Shown here in pieces: positions 42,041-52,205 of a stretch of 64,000 nt of DNA. Both the position numbers and the translations under genes were made by a program. Numbering within the stretch: position 1 is the first letter of the stretch; every line of letters starts with the position of its first letter. Source of the DNA: Acidimicrobiia bacterium (GTDB lineage Bacteria > Actinomycetota > Acidimicrobiia > Spongiisociales > ZC4RG35); the NCBI GenBank assembly GCA_048595045.1, contig JBMDXS010000214.1, positions 9,831 to 73,830 of the forward strand. Reading direction: 5' to 3'. The notes under the pieces were generated by a model. That model worked only from the letters and a program-made list of their open reading frames with translations. It was not told where the DNA came from and searched no databases.

Positions 42041-43714
42041 ATGGAGGAGATGGTCGGCCGAGTGCTTGGGACCAGCGATGCCACCCCACTCGAGTTCTGG
42101 GTGGGTGTGGCCGATGGCGAGTACCTGGAACTGGATGATGTGGTGGCCCTGGAGAGGGTGCTGCCCACCGGCGAGCTGGTCAAGATCTTCGGCACCATCA
42201 GCCAGGTCCGCGCCCGTCACGAAGGGGCGCGGTTCGATTCCGATGTCTTCCTCATCGAGGAGGGTGTGCTTCCCGCCGCGGTCCAGGAGGCGGCCCAGGT
42301 CACCGCGACCCGGGTCGAGCCCGAGATCTTCGTCCCCCCCCGCCCCGGCCAGCCGGTGCGCCGGGCCCATGACAAAGAGCGCGACCAGGCCCTGTTCTTC
42401 GATCGGATGGATCGGAGGTTCCCCGTCGGGGCCTCACGTAATGGCGAGCCTCTCTATGCCAACCTGGAGTTCATCAACGGGCAGCGTGGGGCGCATGTGA
42501 ACATCTCCGGGGTATCGGGCGTTGCCACCAAGACCAGCTATGCCACCTTCCTTCTCCACTCGATGTTCACCTCCGGCGTGCTCGGACCGGCCGTCGTCAA
42601 CACCAAGGCACTGATCTTCAACGTCAAAGGCGAGGACCTTCTCCATCTCGATCGACCCAACACCAGCCTCGATGATGACGCCGAGCGTCTCTACCGGGCT
42701 CTCGAGCTACCGGCCCAGCCATTCGGTTCTGTCGGGTTGTTCGCCCCTCCCCGCCCCGGATCGGACCGGGCCGTGGCCGACGTGAGCAGCCGCTCGGACC
42801 TCACCTCCTTCTTCTGGACACTGGCCGAGTTCTGCCACGAGGACCTCATGGTCTTCCTGTTCGCCGACGCCGAGGACGAACGAGCGCAGTACACCATGGT
42901 GGTCTACAACGTGATGGCCCAGCTGCGCCACGCAGAGGGTGGGGACGGAGGCTCGGTCCGCATCGAAGGGGAGGCCGTTCGCACCTTCAGGGAGCTGGCC
43001 GACCTGATCACGAGAAAGGTGCAGGACGAGGACTCGCGCAACGAATGGGCCGGGCCCCATATCGGTGCCGGGACCGTGAATGCCTTCGTGCGTCGTCTCC
43101 AGGTAGCGGTGCGTCACGTCGATCGTCTGATCCGGGGTGACATCGCCAACCCGGAACGGCATCGCATCGAGGTCCAGGGCCATCAGGTGACCGTCGTGGA
43201 CCTGCACAACCTCAATGATCGGGCGAAGAGATTCGTGGTCGGTGTGGCAGTGAGACGTGCGTTCGAAGACAAGGAGCGGGCCGGCCAGTCAGAGGAGTTG
43301 CTCTTCCTGGTCCTTGACGAACTGAACAAGTACGCCCCGAGAGAAGGGACGAGCCCAATCAAGGAGGTGTTGCTCGATGTGGCCGAACGTGGCCGATCCC
43401 TGGGTGTGATCCTGATCGGTGCCCAGCAGACTGCTTCCGAGGTGGAGCGGAGAATCATCGCCAACTCGTCGATCAGGGTGGTCGGGCGTCTCGACTCTGC
43501 CGAGGCCTCGCGTGAGGAGTATGGATTTCTCCCCGCGGCCCAGAGACAGCGGGCCACCATTCTCAAGCCGGGCACCATGCTCCTGGCCCAACCCGAGATC
43601 CCGGTGCCGCTCGTGCTCGAGTTCCCGTTTCCCGCCTGGGCAACCCGTGCCTCGGAGGCGGCGCCGGCGCCGATCGGAGATGATGGTCCGACCGACCCGT
43701 TCCAAGATCTGTAG
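42041..43714 (+). CDS. herA: HerA-like FtsK/HerA-superfamily ATPase (HAS-barrel N-terminus)
   Basis: 557 aa. The N-terminal VGRVLGTSDATPLEFWVGV....LELDDVV resembles the HerA HAS barrel. The P-loop region is HVNISGVSGVATKTSY, Walker B is LLFLVLDELNKY and the Arg-finger-like region is RSLGVILIGAQQ. Confidence 0.7.
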   Translation: MEEMVGRVLGTSDATPLEFWVGVADGEYLELDDVVALERVLPTGELVKIFGTISQVRARHEGARFDSDVFLIEEGVLPAAVQEAAQVTATRVEPEIFVPPRPGQPVRRAHDKERDQALFFDRMDRRFPVGASRNGEPLYANLEFINGQRGAHVNISGVSGVATKTSYATFLLHSMFTSGVLGPAVVNTKALIFNVKGEDLLHLDRPNTSLDDDAERLYRALELPAQPFGSVGLFAPPRPGSDRAVADVSSRSDLTSFFWTLAEFCHEDLMVFLFADAEDERAQYTMVVYNVMAQLRHAEGGDGGSVRIEGEAVRTFRELADLITRKVQDEDSRNEWAGPHIGAGTVNAFVRRLQVAVRHVDRLIRGDIANPERHRIEVQGHQVTVVDLHNLNDRAKRFVVGVAVRRAFEDKERAGQSEELLFLVLDELNKYAPREGTSPIKEVLLDVAERGRSLGVILIGAQQTASEVERRIIANSSIRVVGRLDSAEASREEYGFLPAAQRQRATILKPGTMLLAQPEIPVPLVLEFPFPAWATRASEAAPAPIGDDGPTDPFQDL

Positions 43715-43715
43715 C

Positions 43716-43747
43716 GCCCGGGGGTAGGGGTCGCCCCCCAGGTTCGA
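43716..43747 (+). repeat. Palindromic intergenic repeat, copy 2 (diverged, 1-2 nt shorter)
   Basis: CCCGGGGGTAGGGGTCGCCCCCCAGGTTCGAC lies between the herA-like gene and sbcD. Confidence 0.75.
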
Positions 43748-43827
43748 CCGCGGGCGCGAGATCGCATCTCCCCGAATCTGTCGGTGCTCGGTCCTACGAT
43801 CGCCCTCATGACCCGCTCGGTCCCTCC

Positions 43828-44958
43828 ATGAAGATGCTCCACACCTCCGATTGGCACGTGGGGAGGAAGATCCGCGGACGTTCCCGAGCCGACGAGCATC
43901 GGGCCGTCCTCGGCGAGATCGTCGGGATAGCCGAGGAGGAGCGGGTCGATGTCACGCTCGTCGCCGGGGACCTCTTCGATGTCTCGTCGCCAACACCGGA
44001 GGACGAGGCCATCGTCTATCGGGCCTTGCTCGACTTGGCCGAGGTGGGCCCGGTCGTGGTGGTGGGGGGGAATCACGACAACGCGGCGCGTCTGGAGGCG
44101 GTCAAGCCGCTGCTCGACCTGGGGCGGATCACCGTCGTCGCCAGGCCGACCAGGCCGGGCGATGGGGGCCTGATCGTCTTCGATGGGCTCGATCTCTCCA
44201 TCGCCGCCCTGCCATTCATCTCCCAACGGGGGATCGTGAAGGTGGCCGAGATCATGGACCTCGATCCCGATCAACATGCCCAGGGCTATGACGAGCGGCT
44301 GCGCAGGATCATTGTCGGGCTCACCGAGGGCATGCGCCCCGACCAGGTCAACGTGGTGGCCGGTCATCTCACCGTGTACGGAGCCGAGACCGGTGGTGGG
44401 GAGCGGGATGCCCACATATTCGGCTACGCCATCCCCCCACAGGCGTTCCCCGGCAGCCTTTCCTACGTCGCACTGGGTCATCTCCACCGCCAGCAACGAG
44501 TTCCCGCGGCTGCACCTGTCTGGTACAGCGGCTCTCCGATGCAGCTCGACTTCGGCGAAGTGAGTGACGTCAAAGGCGTCATCGTGGTAGATGCCGAGCC
44601 CTCTTTGCCTGCCTCGGTTCGGCCCCGCCCTCTGGCCGGCGGGACCAGGCTTGTCCAGCTGAGGGGCACCCTGGAACACGTCCTGGCCCAGGCTGCTGAG
44701 GTCCAAGACGCCTACGTGAAGGTCCTTCTCGACGAGAAAGCGCGGGCCGGGTTGAACGAGGAGGTCCGGGAGGCGATACCTGGGGCCGTGGATGTCATCA
44801 TCATCCGCCCCGAGGAGCGGGCGAAACGTACCGAGACGAGACGATCGGGACGATCTTCGGTCGAGCTGTTCGAGAGCTATCTCGCCACGCGTGGAGTCGA
44901 CGATCCCGAGGTGGTCGGGTTGTTCCGCGAGCTCGAGCAGGAAGTGCTATCCGGATGA
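43828..44958 (+). CDS. sbcD: exonuclease SbcD / Mre11-family nuclease
   Basis: It has MKMLHTSDWHVG, AGDLFD, GNHD and ALGHLH phosphoesterase motifs. Confidence 0.9.
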   Translation: MKMLHTSDWHVGRKIRGRSRADEHRAVLGEIVGIAEEERVDVTLVAGDLFDVSSPTPEDEAIVYRALLDLAEVGPVVVVGGNHDNAARLEAVKPLLDLGRITVVARPTRPGDGGLIVFDGLDLSIAALPFISQRGIVKVAEIMDLDPDQHAQGYDERLRRIIVGLTEGMRPDQVNVVAGHLTVYGAETGGGERDAHIFGYAIPPQAFPGSLSYVALGHLHRQQRVPAAAPVWYSGSPMQLDFGEVSDVKGVIVVDAEPSLPASVRPRPLAGGTRLVQLRGTLEHVLAQAAEVQDAYVKVLLDEKARAGLNEEVREAIPGAVDVIIIRPEERAKRTETRRSGRSSVELFESYLATRGVDDPEVVGLFRELEQEVLSG

Positions 44959-47285
44959 GGCCGCGGCATCTGGTCATGGAGGGATTCCTCGCCTACCGGC
45001 GCAAGACCGAGATCGACTTCAACGACGCAGACCTCTTCGTGCTCTCGGGCCCCACTGGTGCCGGCAAGTCGAGCGTGATAGACGGGATCACGTTTGCGCT
45101 CTACGGCGCGATACCCCGTCTGGGCAAGGGCTCGGTGGCGCCGCTGATCTCCGCCCAATCCGACCGCGCCCGCGTCTCCTTCCGCTTCACGGTTGGCGAC
45201 GAGTTCTATACCGCCGCCCGCATGTTGGAGCGTCACGGGGCGGGGGCCAGCACCAGGGAGGCCAGGCTGCAGCGGGGCACGGAGGAAGTGGTCCTGGCCG
45301 GCACCCCCGACGAGGTGACTGCGGAGGTGACCAAGCTGTTGGGGCTCAGCTACGAGCACTTCGTCAAGGCGGTCGTCCTGCCCCAGGGGGCCTTTGCCGA
45401 CTTCCTCACCGACAAGCCGAAGGACCGGCAGGCACTTCTCGGAGAGCTGCTCGACATGGGTCTCTACGAGGAGGTGATGCAGCTTGCCAATGTCCGCACC
45501 AAGCTCGCCGATGGCCGGGCGAAGACTGCCGTGGAGAGTCTCGCCAAGCTCGACGTGGCCACCGACGCTCAGCTGGCAGAGGCCCGTGCCAGGCTGGAGC
45601 ACCTGATCGGGGCGGGGATAGAGCTCCCCCGCCGGCTCGAGCTGCTGGAGAGTCTCGACGCGATCTGTCGGAAGGCGCGGGAGGCCTACACGGCCGTGGT
45701 CGGGAGCCTGGATCGTCTCCGCGCCATACAGATCCCTGGTGACCTCGAGACCTTGGGGGAAGACAGGAGGACAGCGGGTGAGGCCATGACGATCGCTCAG
45801 ACCGGGCTCTCTGCCGTCCTAGACGAGCGGAGAGGTCTTCAGGAGCGAGCCGCCGGCCTGCCTGCGTTGGCCCAGCTCCAGTCCTACCGACAGGACCAGA
45901 TGACGCGCGTGGAGCTCGCCGATCGTCTGGCGGCACTCGACCTGACGGCCCTGGCTGCGGAGTGGGAAGGGGCGGCCGCGGCCTGTGATCAGGCTCGCCT
46001 CGATCTGGAGACAGCCAGGGTCGCCCACGTGGCCCAAGACTTGCGCCAGGCCCTGGCCTTGGGGGATCCCTGTCCGGTGTGCGGGGCGGTGGTCGGCACA
46101 CTCGATGAGAGAGAGACCGAGCTTCACGGGTCCATCGAGTTGCTCCGGGAGAAGCTGAATCGCGCCGAGGAGCGGGCCGACCAAGCCCGAGGTGCGGTCA
46201 AGGGAGCCGAGGGCGAGGCCAAGCAGATCGATCGTCAGCTGGTCGAGGTGACCGCCCGACTCGAGGAAGCCCCCTCCCCCGAGGCTGTCGCAGACATGAT
46301 CGAGAGAGTTCGCTCATCGGAAGAGGCACTGCTGGCCAACGAGAAGAGGGTCGAAGAGGCGCAGTTGGAGGTCGATGCGGCCGGGCTCCTCGTCGCCGGG
46401 CTCGAAGAGCGAAGCACCGGTCTCGGTGAGGCGCTGCTCGCGGCAAGGGACAGGGTCGCATCCGAGGAGCCGCCCATCCCCGGCAAGGACCCGATCGAGG
46501 CATGGCACAGATTCGAGGAATGGCTCATCGGGAGGATGGCCGATCGAGCGGGTGAGCTGGCATCCCTGGAAACGGCGCGTAAGGAGGCAGACGCGGCTCT
46601 GGGTGCGGCGATGGGAGAGCAGCGCGCCTGGCTCGATGGGCTGGGCATCCCGGTCACCGATTCGCCGGGCACCGACCTCGCCCTGGCCGAGGCAGGTCAG
46701 AGGGCCGCCATCGACGAGATGGAGAAGACCATCACCCTGGCCTCTGAGCTGGAAGAGGAGCTGACGCTGGAACAAGCCCGGGCCCGGGTTGCCTCGGCGC
46801 TGGGGAACCACCTCAAGTCGAACAACTTCGAGGCCTGGCTTCTGGAGGAGGCGATGGAAGTTCTGATCGATGGGGCCAATGGGCTCCTCGACGATCTATC
46901 CGGCGGCGCCTACTCGCTAAAGATGACCAAGGGCCAGTTCGAGGTCATCGACCACCGCAACGCCGAGCTGACCAGGACGACCCGGTCCTTGTCCGGGGGA
47001 GAGACGTTCCTGGTTTCGCTTTCGCTGGCCTTGTCGATGGCCGACCAGCTCGCCCTGCTCACCGGCGTGTCCTCGCGTCTCGAATCGGTCTTCCTCGATG
47101 AGGGGTTCGGGTCGCTCGACCAAGAGTCGCTCGATGTGGTCGCGTCCGTGCTCGACGAGCTGGTCGGCCGCGGGCGCACCGTCGGCATAGTCACCCACGT
47201 GCGGGAGCTCGCCGACCGCATCCCGGTTCGGTTCGAGGTCACCAAGGGCCCGGAGACGGCCACGGTCACCAGGTTGGGGGAGTGA
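44955..47285 (+). CDS. sbcC: SbcC / Rad50-family SMC-like ATPase
   Basis: It has Walker A GPTGAGKSS, a long coiled coil with a central CPVC zinc hook (46071-46082), the signature LSGGETF and Walker B VFLDEGFGSLD. The start overlaps the sbcD stop (ATGA). Confidence 0.9.
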   Translation: MRPRHLVMEGFLAYRRKTEIDFNDADLFVLSGPTGAGKSSVIDGITFALYGAIPRLGKGSVAPLISAQSDRARVSFRFTVGDEFYTAARMLERHGAGASTREARLQRGTEEVVLAGTPDEVTAEVTKLLGLSYEHFVKAVVLPQGAFADFLTDKPKDRQALLGELLDMGLYEEVMQLANVRTKLADGRAKTAVESLAKLDVATDAQLAEARARLEHLIGAGIELPRRLELLESLDAICRKAREAYTAVVGSLDRLRAIQIPGDLETLGEDRRTAGEAMTIAQTGLSAVLDERRGLQERAAGLPALAQLQSYRQDQMTRVELADRLAALDLTALAAEWEGAAAACDQARLDLETARVAHVAQDLRQALALGDPCPVCGAVVGTLDERETELHGSIELLREKLNRAEERADQARGAVKGAEGEAKQIDRQLVEVTARLEEAPSPEAVADMIERVRSSEEALLANEKRVEEAQLEVDAAGLLVAGLEERSTGLGEALLAARDRVASEEPPIPGKDPIEAWHRFEEWLIGRMADRAGELASLETARKEADAALGAAMGEQRAWLDGLGIPVTDSPGTDLALAEAGQRAAIDEMEKTITLASELEEELTLEQARARVASALGNHLKSNNFEAWLLEEAMEVLIDGANGLLDDLSGGAYSLKMTKGQFEVIDHRNAELTRTTRSLSGGETFLVSLSLALSMADQLALLTGVSSRLESVFLDEGFGSLDQESLDVVASVLDELVGRGRTVGIVTHVRELADRIPVRFEVTKGPETATVTRLGE

Positions 47286-47395
47286 GACCCCTCCCCGCCC
47301 GTTTCCCCACCCGGAGGGGAAGTCGGCGCGAAGTTCCCCCCTCCCCCGGCTACGCCGGTACTCCCCCCTACGGGGGGAGAAACAGGGGCGGAGTA

Positions 47396-47434
47396 ATGAT
47401 GCGGCGGCATCGCTCCGCACGGGGGAAGCGATGA
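47396..47434 (+). promoter_or_regulatory. candidate 12-codon leader ORF (MMRRHRSARGKR) overlapping the downstream start codon
   Basis: The sequence is ATG ATG CGG CGG CAT CGC TCC GCA CGG GGG AAG CGA TGA. GGAG lies at 47390-47393. The TGA (47432-34) overlaps the ATG (47431-33) of the NurA-like gene. The region also forms the hairpin CATCGCT(47408-14)/AGCGATG(47427-33). Confidence 0.3.
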
Positions 47435-48336
47435 GATTCACCGTCGAGGCCTGGGATCCCGATTACGGGGCGTCCTCAGACCCCGAGCTGGCCGACGCCA
47501 CGGAGAACGTCGATGTCTCGGTCGAACTGACGCCGGAGCAGTGGCACCCCATCCTGCCCGAGGCCGTTCCCGCGCCGGACATCTTGTTCGTGGACGGTGT
47601 GCGCCGGGTCGACGCCAATCTGTGGATCGAGCACGACGGTCGGTTTCCAAGCTTCGGCCTGGCCGCCACCTTCGCGGCCGGAGCGGTGCGATGCAACAGC
47701 GAAGCCGTGGTGGTGGCCGCAGAAGTTCGGCGGGGTGTGTTCACCGGCGCCGACGCCGACCCGGTGAAGACCACCATCGGGACATATCAGGTGATGAGCA
47801 CCAAAGGCTCGACCCCGGAGGAGCTTTGGCTCGGCATCCAGCAGCGGATGGGAGATCTGGAGGGTGGCATCGCCGAGCGACATGCCGACGTGGCACTGAT
47901 GGTGGTCGACGGGCCACTCTCCCATCGACGTCATGTGGAGGGGGCCGTCGGCTACGTCAAGACACAGCACGTCCAATATCTGCCCGACGATCTGAGGGCG
48001 ACGTTGGGTGCCCTGCCCGTCGGGCATCGAACGCCGCTCTTCCTCACCACTACCTCGTGGAGCAGATTCTCCTGGTATCTGCGTCTCGCCAATGGCACCG
48101 GTCCGGCTGGGGGGCTGGTGCGGTGCGAGGTCCAGGCCGACATGAGCGTGGCGGAGGCAGTGCGGCGGGCAAACCTGGTCACCGCTTCGCTGCCCCGGTA
48201 TGCGTCGGCCCGACACAAGGACCCCCGTGCCCCCCAGAACCTCTACCCGATCGGCGGTCTCGAACGCGAGCTACGCCGGCGGCTGGGTGATCGGGACCTG
48301 GCCATCCGAGCCCTGCGACTGGCTGCTGCATCTTGA
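47431..48336 (+). CDS. nurA: NurA-like nuclease (assignment by context and weak motif)
   Basis: 301 aa. The N-terminal strand ILFVDGVRR (Asp at 47593-95) resembles the NurA catalytic (I/V)DG(S/V) motif. It occupies the position of nurA in the archaeal herA-mre11-rad50-nurA operon. Confidence 0.5.
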   Translation: MRFTVEAWDPDYGASSDPELADATENVDVSVELTPEQWHPILPEAVPAPDILFVDGVRRVDANLWIEHDGRFPSFGLAATFAAGAVRCNSEAVVVAAEVRRGVFTGADADPVKTTIGTYQVMSTKGSTPEELWLGIQQRMGDLEGGIAERHADVALMVVDGPLSHRRHVEGAVGYVKTQHVQYLPDDLRATLGALPVGHRTPLFLTTTSWSRFSWYLRLANGTGPAGGLVRCEVQADMSVAEAVRRANLVTASLPRYASARHKDPRAPQNLYPIGGLERELRRRLGDRDLAIRALRLAAAS

Positions 48337-51089: not shown

Positions 51090-52205
51090 GTGGCTCTCTC
51101 CATCGGTATCGTCGGTCTGCCCAACGTCGGCAAGTCCACCCTCTTCAACGCGCTCACCGACGCGGGTGTCCTTGCCGCCAACTATCCGTTCGCCACCATC
51201 GAGCCCAACACGGGGGTCGTCCCCATTCCCGACGGCCGCCTCGAGGTGCTGGCCGGTATCTTCGGGTCCAAGCGAGTGGTGCCGGCGACGGTGACGTTCG
51301 TGGACATCGCCGGCTTGGTGAAGGGCGCAGGGGAGGGGGAGGGGCTGGGCAACCAGTTCCTCGCCAACATCCGCGAGGCCAACGCCATCTGTCATGTGGT
51401 CCGGGGGTTCAGATCTGAGCGCGTGGCTCACGTCGCCGGCGCGGGGGTCTGGGGCTCGTCCCCCGGGAATGACGGCCTCGATCCCCGTCGTGACATCGAG
51501 ATCATCGAGACGGAATTGGCGATCGCCGACCTCCAGACCATCGACAAGCGCCTTCCACGACTCGAAAAGGAGTCGACGATCGACAGGTCCCTGCTTGCTC
51601 AGGTCGACCTCATACGTGAGCTGCGAGCCATCGTCGCCTCGGGCCGGATGGTCAGCAGCGTGCCAGGACTGATGGATGCTGCCGGTGGTCTCTCCGATCT
51701 GCAGTTGCTCACCGCCAAGCCGATCATCTACGTCTTCAATCTCGACGAGGAAGGCCTTCGTGATGTTCCCCTCCGTCAGCAACTGGCGGGGCTGGTCGCG
51801 CCGGCCGAGGCGCTGTTCCTCGATGCTCAGATCGAGGCGGAGATGGGCGAACTCGACGAAGACGACCGCAGAGAGCTTCTCGCGTCGGTCGGGCAGGAGG
51901 AACCTGGTCTCCATGCGGTGATCCGGGCCGCCTATCGCACGCTCGGTCTGCAGAGCTTCCTGACCGCCGGCGAGAAGGAGGCGCGGGCGTGGACCATTCG
52001 CTCGGGCACAACCGCCCCCGAGGCCGCAGGCGTGATCCACACCGACTTTCAGCGCGGGTTCATCGCTGCCGAAGTCGTCGGCTACGAGGCCCTGGTCGAG
52101 GCGGGCTCGTGGCTGACCGCCCGAGCCCGCGGGTTGATCCGCACCGAGGGAAAGACGTACGTGATGCGCGCAGGCGACGTCGTGGAGTTCAGGTTCAACG
52201 TGTGA
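51090..52205 (+). CDS. ychF: redox-regulated ribosome-binding ATPase YchF (with 11-aa insertion)
   Basis: It has GIVGLPNVGKSTLFNALT, VDIAGLVKGA, GLGNQFLANIRE and a TGS-like C-terminus. There is an extra AGVWGSSPGND between HVAG and GLDPRRDIE. Confidence 0.95.
   Translation: MALSIGIVGLPNVGKSTLFNALTDAGVLAANYPFATIEPNTGVVPIPDGRLEVLAGIFGSKRVVPATVTFVDIAGLVKGAGEGEGLGNQFLANIREANAICHVVRGFRSERVAHVAGAGVWGSSPGNDGLDPRRDIEIIETELAIADLQTIDKRLPRLEKESTIDRSLLAQVDLIRELRAIVASGRMVSSVPGLMDAAGGLSDLQLLTAKPIIYVFNLDEEGLRDVPLRQQLAGLVAPAEALFLDAQIEAEMGELDEDDRRELLASVGQEEPGLHAVIRAAYRTLGLQSFLTAGEKEARAWTIRSGTTAPEAAGVIHTDFQRGFIAAEVVGYEALVEAGSWLTARARGLIRTEGKTYVMRAGDVVEFRFNV
51441..51473 (+). repeat. diverged in-frame copy of the palindromic repeat inside ychF
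   Basis: GCGGGGGTCTGGGGCTCGTCCCCCGGGAATGAC compares with the intergenic consensus CTCGGGGGTCTGGGGGTCGCCCCCCAGATTCGAC. It is exactly 33 nt, in frame, and coincides with the 11 residues that are extra relative to YchF orthologues as I recall them. Confidence 0.6.

Follow-up and report, generated by a model that had tools for sequence, protein, structure and literature searches.

MIRUs, repeats of Mycobacterium, are described as inserting at start codons with an ORF coupled at −4, and as having ORFs that overlap the adjacent genes (PMC12548453 and PMC3184786, both citing Supply et al. 1997). In the account given in PMC3184786, they show empty and filled sites, tetranucleotide direct repeats and G/C-rich internal inverted repeats. 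Termination-reinitiation coupling at ATGA, as described in PMC12548453, is the ancestral state of the junction between sbcC and the nurA-like nuclease gene studied here, and also the state of the neighboring sbcD/sbcC junction. The filled sbcC/nurA junction contains two such overlaps in series and, unlike classical ATGA coupling, has a putative 50-codon relay ORF interposed across strong secondary structure. We consider it likely that the repeats in this junction form a MIRU-like relay preserving the sbcC-nurA translational coupling, in which, judging from the sequence, the interposed mini-ORF would be translated and the coupling would work.

The window, which is the whole 64,000-nt stretch of DNA analyzed, comes from an uncultured soil Acidimicrobiia bacterium (genome G000) and contains an operon in the order herA-like (42041-43714), sbcD (43828-44958), sbcC (44955-47285) and nurA-like (47431-48336). 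The sbcD stop and the sbcC start share ATGA at 44955-58. The nurA-like product matches the Pfam NurA model only at E = 0.007 and the NurA structure PDB 7f6d at E = 8.7e-19. Its start codon, on which the earlier note had built its reading, is upheld by the N-termini of ~100 orthologues, in which MRFTVEAWDPDYG is aligned from residue 1. The sbcC-nurA spacer is 145 nt long (47286-47430) and lies between the sbcC stop TGA (47283-85) and the nurA ATG (47431-33). It is composed of an older insertion, shared with the related genome G004, and a nested copy of a repeat that we call type A:

44955-47285, plus strand: sbcC, 776 aa (Pfam AAA_23 and SbcC_Walker_B; NCBIfam TIGR00618, E = 1.5e-69)
47282-47434, plus strand: bridging mini-ORF, 50 codons, in the third frame, unlike the sbcC and nurA frames
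47286-47333, plus strand: older insertion, 5' part, aligned with G004; relic of another type of repeat (type B)
47334-47384, plus strand: nested type A repeat copy, net +51 nt relative to G004 and missing from the G004 spacer
47385-47430, plus strand: older insertion, 3' part, common to G004 only
47431-48336, plus strand: nurA-like nuclease gene, 301 aa; start codon backed by the conserved N-terminus

The bridging mini-ORF opens with GTG 47282-84 on the sbcC stop (GTGA 47282-85) and closes with TGA 47432-34 on the nurA ATG (ATGA 47431-34), and −4 overlaps at both ORF ends are found in all nine distinct filled spacers described below. Its GTG is preceded only by a directly abutting SD-like GGGGGA. 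The type A copy consists of a C-tract (47334-47345), a first hairpin (47346-58), a second hairpin (47361-79) and an AAAC tail. The 3' part of the older insertion contains a GGAG (47390-93) and an in-frame ATG ATG (47396-47401), and a hairpin of 12 bp is predicted in it at 47388-47418; its SD-like GGGGGAAG lies at 47421-28, 4 nt upstream of nurA. Another spacer of the operon, herA-like/sbcD (43715-43827, 113 nt), contains a different G5/C5 palindromic repeat at about 43716-43747, and no bridging ORF was seen in it. Thus, two junctions of this repair operon have repeat insertions, while sbcD/sbcC still has its ATGA overlap.

The earlier note had interpreted the spacer as a leader or attenuator dedicated to nurA, which would be regulated specifically by an Arg-rich uORF of 12 codons (47396-47434) and by a hairpin formed by 47408-14 and 47427-33. 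In 109 fetched orthologous loci, we mapped where sbcC stops and where nurA starts; some genomes are represented twice, and G038, an unpublished genome, contributes nothing to the count or to any claim made here. The ancestral-type 4-nt overlap (ATGA or GTGA) is found in 94 of these Acidimicrobiia loci, and one further locus has a 1-nt overlap. The empty sites comprise G009 and 93 other loci, and G009 is the sister of G000 and G004 (support 100/100) with a NurA identity of 97%. A regulatory device dedicated to nurA is difficult to reconcile with a spacer that is missing from 94 of the 109 loci, the sister genome among them, and this reading fails the condition of conservation in related genomes that the earlier note itself had set. 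A cis-regulatory leader, riboswitch or attenuator is not indicated by the Rfam scan either, in which nothing in 46800-47900 reached threshold at E up to 10 (the best match, to mraW and on the other strand, scored 23.6 bits, with a threshold of 50).

There are nine distinct filled spacers, which all belong to a single clade of the genus tree; the clade has 15 rows and also contains six empty sites. To explain the tree, no fewer than 3-4 gains or losses at the junction are needed. Five spacers of 46-55 nt consist of one type A copy with (A/G)TGA on its left and ATGA on its right, a duplicated tetranucleotide. In the two 91-nt spacers, type B is nested in type A. The G004 spacer (94 nt) is composed of a type B-like part and a degenerate 3' part, and the alignment shows that the G000 spacer corresponds to that of G004 with an additional type A copy, net 51 nt, nested mid-way. 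Neither the 5' nor the 3' part of the G000 spacer has a second copy in G000. [quoted passage not shown] The ATGA on nurA, which the earlier note had regarded as part of the device, is inherited from the ancestral overlap of the sbcC stop and the nurA start.

We also looked at the junction in Logan DNA contigs from four soil metagenome runs. Two pieces extend from sbcC to 47313 or 47334, and two others extend from 47344 or 47351 into nurA. All of them break inside the type A repeat, in the interval 47335-47350, where other genomic copies attach; none of the contigs from these four runs spans the spacer repeat, and the empty-site joint was also unseen in them. The contigs lend weak backing to the assembly at the spacer.

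The type A unit is ~50 nt long and is made up of a C-tract, a 5-bp hairpin, a TA, an 8-bp hairpin and AAAC. An nhmmer search of the 3.08-Mb MAG of G000 found 12 copies, and type A is present in 21 of the 31 genus genomes, with 0 to >40 copies per genome. Beyond the genus, it was found in 18 of 301 sampled class genomes, all belonging to one order, and in a sample of 401 phylum genomes only in G000 and one genome of the same order; among the ~370 other Actinomycetota sampled, it was not found. An alignment of 42 copies has 96% of its helix cells paired, with a compensatory GC to CG swap at one pair of helix 1 in 10 of the 42, and in either loop the middle base is free to vary. The TAC-loop hairpins of the spacer are therefore a copy of a dispersed repeat and not a structure specific to this locus. 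Literature searches for repeats of this kind gave no published account of the type A family.

Type B consists of a TTTCC-rich arm, GGGGGAGG, a GGCCC-GGA-GGGCC hairpin and GGAGGGGGA, and its degenerate form makes up the older part of the sbcC/nurA spacers in G000, G004 and G013. Elsewhere in G000, type B immediately follows a type A copy on contigs C275 (481-610) and C41 (76-124). In G044 (C26:199243-199391, period 51 nt) and in G024 (C2:224388-224532, period ~49 nt), three type A copies stand head to tail ~4 kb from nurA, in arrays that resemble MIRU-VNTR loci. Another G000 copy (C73:3236-3298) lies between convergent genes, one of which encodes a ~30-residue, very basic peptide (MGSLVKKRRKK...) that may resemble the actinobacterial small ribosomal protein bS22. 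An in-frame repeat in ychF (51441-51473) was considered as a further copy and set aside, being unlike type A by eye.

Two G000 copies on the minus strand, C137:8462-8524 and C8:1540-1601, apparently form the in-frame 3' end of a long ORF whose stop overlaps the following gene as ATGA; the C8 copy is antisense. They resemble C-terminal extensions of the RPE type. RPEs (Ogata et al. 2000, cited in PMC3184786) are, as that source presents them, like type A in being hairpin repeats tolerated within translated sequence. However, RPEs lie inside protein genes and are part of the protein, whereas the type A product would be a separate, throw-away ORF between genes.

The nine spacers share their reading phase. 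Their lengths are 46, 49, 49, 49, 55, 91, 91, 94 and 145 nt, all equal to 1 modulo 3, and all nine are stop-free from the (A/G)TG on the sbcC stop to the TGA on the nurA ATG. The openness was dropped as evidence, since in DNA of 70% G+C it is expected by chance: 43% of shuffles of the G000 spacer are open, and 43-84% across all shuffles. The phase is more telling. For seven differing lengths or structures to fall into one length class, the chance would be ~(1/3)^6 to (1/3)^7 if the events were independent; as they are related, this figure is somewhat overstated. The sister genomes G018 (55 nt) and G013 (91 nt) have very different spacers that are both in phase, and the two 91-nt spacers differ through internal indels, yet both keep the phase and encode unrelated peptides. 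Different junctions also put the type A unit into different frames, two in all. The differing peptides and the two frames indicate that it is the phase that is kept, not the product.

The main alternative to the relay is a neutral, selfish insertion, in which the spacer is untranslated, nurA relies for initiation on the SD-like GGGGGAAG of its own and the phase follows incidentally from the length of the element. A stretch of this kind 4 nt upstream of nurA would make independent initiation possible, a fixed element length would give the correct phase automatically at each fresh insertion, and this reading is in keeping with the chance openness of the mini-ORF, with the relatedness of the nine spacers, whose modulo-3 events are not fully independent, and with the many type A copies in non-coupled contexts. 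However, it does not account for the later changes (the 46- and 55-nt spacers, the two 91-nt versions, the 94-nt spacer and the nested +51 nt), which all stayed at 1 modulo 3, or for sisters as different as G018 and G013 both being in phase. The predicted pairing of the nurA SD and AUG, given below, also speaks against it. We regard the neutral insertion as rather unlikely.

The predicted RNA fold bears on both the neutral and the attenuator readings. For the entire spacer, the fold energy is −88.4 kcal/mol (z = −2.06), which 6 of 200 shuffles also reach, and the two TAC-loop hairpins by themselves give −24.7 kcal/mol (z = −2.69). Four hairpins had been drawn in the earlier note, and their complementary segments are all present: CCGGC-TAC-GCCGG at 47346-58, CTCCCCCC-TAC-GGGGGGAG at 47361-79, CATCGCT and AGCGATG at 47408-14 and 47427-33, and CCCCTCC and GGAGGGG, whose positions are 47288-94 and 47313-19, as they had been numbered 1 nt too high. 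The alternative pairing that had been suggested for the last of these also exists, between GGGGAA (47316-21) and TTCCCC (47334-39). Of the four, the two with a TAC loop are the only ones that are robust in the predicted ensemble (pair probabilities 0.97-1.0), whereas the first and fourth hairpins have a probability of ~0. In their place, a UUUCCCC/GGGGAAG-based stem is predicted in 47286-47333 (−20.5 kcal/mol, z = −1.88), together with the 12-bp hairpin at 47388-47418 (p ~1).

The fourth hairpin had been proposed to bury the purine-rich stretch and the start codon of nurA. As drawn, it would hold GGGGGA in its loop instead of its stem. The nurA start region is nevertheless predicted to be base-paired, with other partners: GGGGGAA (47421-27) with UUCCCCC (47334-40) at p ~0.9, and CGAUG (47429-33) with CGUCG (47442-46) at p 0.96. 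With the SD-like stretch and the AUG of nurA both paired in the predicted fold of the naked RNA, nurA initiation would be helped by a ribosome passing through.

As for the uORF, the ATG ATG ... TGA frame at 47396-47434 (MMRRHRSARGKR) is real, has GGAG 47390-93 ahead of it and ends with a TGA overlapping the nurA ATG, and its tail is also found in G004; these are the observations that favor a dedicated attenuator. The frame is, however, not a unit of its own but the tail of the 50-codon frame that opens at GTG 47282, not at 47396. Among related genomes, the tail occurs only in G004, where 4 of its 11 residues differ, each through a non-synonymous change. Together with the ~0 probability of the drawn hairpin, the dispersed-repeat origin of the core, the lack of an Rfam match and the empty orthologous junctions, this leaves a dedicated attenuator as the most improbable of the readings weighed here.

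In the MIRU-like relay that we favor, the insertion would have duplicated the four-base overlap. The left copy would retain the ancestral nurA initiation context, an SD-like GGGGGA with a start codon that overlaps the sbcC stop, and would open a 50-codon throw-away ORF, while the right copy would retain the nurA ATG on the stop codon of the mini-ORF. Ribosomes ending sbcC would reinitiate at GTG 47282, and some may load at GGAG/ATG 47390-47401. They would translate across the spacer, melting its hairpins, terminate on the nurA ATG and reinitiate there, and the ancestral coupling would thereby be preserved across 145 nt of stable structure. The delivery of ribosomes to the nurA start by an upstream ORF, as the earlier note had proposed, probably does take place, given an ORF that ends in ATGA and a spacer phase that is kept, but the frame begins elsewhere than had been assumed.

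Bridging mini-ORFs were also found at other junctions filled with type A:

tatC to DEAD-box helicase: G009, L135:1497-1550; 17 codons, ATGA ... ATGA; flanking genes Pfam-confirmed
secY to adk: G046, L125:1445-1555; 36 codons, GTGA ... GTGA; flanking genes Pfam-confirmed
pgk to tpiA: G042, L130, minus strand; 50 codons, TGATG ... GTGA; flanking genes Pfam-confirmed
Zn-ribbon gene to a small ORF: G000 contig C253, L007:1497-1592; 31 codons, ATGA ... ATGA; 1.5 type A copies

When bridging ORFs were tallied automatically for 39 copies, the result was noisy, as GC-rich DNA contains many spurious long ORFs, and the cases retained from it were only short mini-ORFs with Pfam-confirmed flanking genes. 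Co-oriented operon junctions are occupied at sbcC/nurA, tatC/helicase, secY/adk and pgk/tpiA, though not by every copy. Many type A copies that have no bridging ORF are oriented like the upstream gene and lie no more than ~12 nt 3' of its stop codon, and several are flanked by convergent genes. The relay is thus not universal among type A copies: it is a configuration seen at tight operon junctions and not a property of every copy.

Most copies closely follow a stop codon and share the direction of the gene that it ends, and several lie between convergent genes. This raises the alternative that type A is a REP-like RNA element, whose very stable hairpins act as a 3' stabilizer, a processing site or a non-canonical terminator of the sbcC transcript and uncouple the levels of sbcC and nurA. 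REPs and BIMEs of Enterobacteria and Pseudomonas are, like type A, short extragenic G/C-rich palindromes often located just 3' of genes, at times nested or mosaic, that form stable RNA hairpins. Unlike them, the type A unit is made of two hairpins and a C-tract, its copy number in G000 is low (12), and no match to a Y1/RAYT transposase gene (PF01797) was found in G000, which is 96.7% complete, while control genomes did match. We know of no phase-preserving mini-ORFs in REPs. As a terminator, the spacer would also be unusual, since an intrinsic terminator has a G/C hairpin followed by a U-tract and here AAAC follows the hairpin; in agreement with this, a promoter and terminator consensus scan gave no site within 47286-47430. 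A REP-like role would leave the phase conservation and the ATGA at both ends unexplained, and we consider it very unlikely.

The comparison with MIRUs, as far as PMC12548453 and PMC3184786 describe them, is closer. Both are dispersed G/C-rich repeats of 40-100 bp with internal inverted repeats in tens of copies. Both occupy operon junctions, oriented like the genes there, with a small ORF that overlaps the flanking stop and start codons at −4. In both, orthologous sites can be empty or filled, with a tetranucleotide that is duplicated, and tandem and nested copies occur. In contrast to MIRUs, type A has its host in Acidimicrobiia, not in Mycobacterium, and was found in one order only among the genomes sampled, and it is less strictly intercistronic because many copies follow stop codons between convergent genes. 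We thus describe type A as MIRU-like by proposed function and by anatomy and do not file it in the MIRU sequence family, as it was found in just one order of Acidimicrobiia.

It is conceivable, although we hold it to be doubtful, that type A is an actively mobile element that targets overlapping stop and start codons, and that at the level of the element it has been made 'translationally transparent' through its length, the 3' SD-like GGGGGGAG that a hairpin encloses, and frames free of stops. No known transposase would account for such movement.

For those who annotate genomes, spacers of this type may be misleading, as gene callers and RNA-motif hunters will mistake them for leaders or small proteins, and the type A repeat also fragments short-read assemblies. 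The empty, filled and nested series provides ready-made constructs for studying termination-reinitiation across long structured spacers. With the relay as the likely reading, what had appeared to be a bespoke riboregulator becomes a case of genome dynamics, in which small repeats repeatedly enter and leave one four-base junction while selection would keep the phase, and the MIRU idea would be extended from mycobacteria to uncultured soil Acidimicrobiia. If type A is indeed mobile and translationally transparent, the nested insertions at sbcC/nurA would represent a natural experiment, and a ribosome relay via throw-away ORFs may be a general way in which operons absorb mobile DNA.
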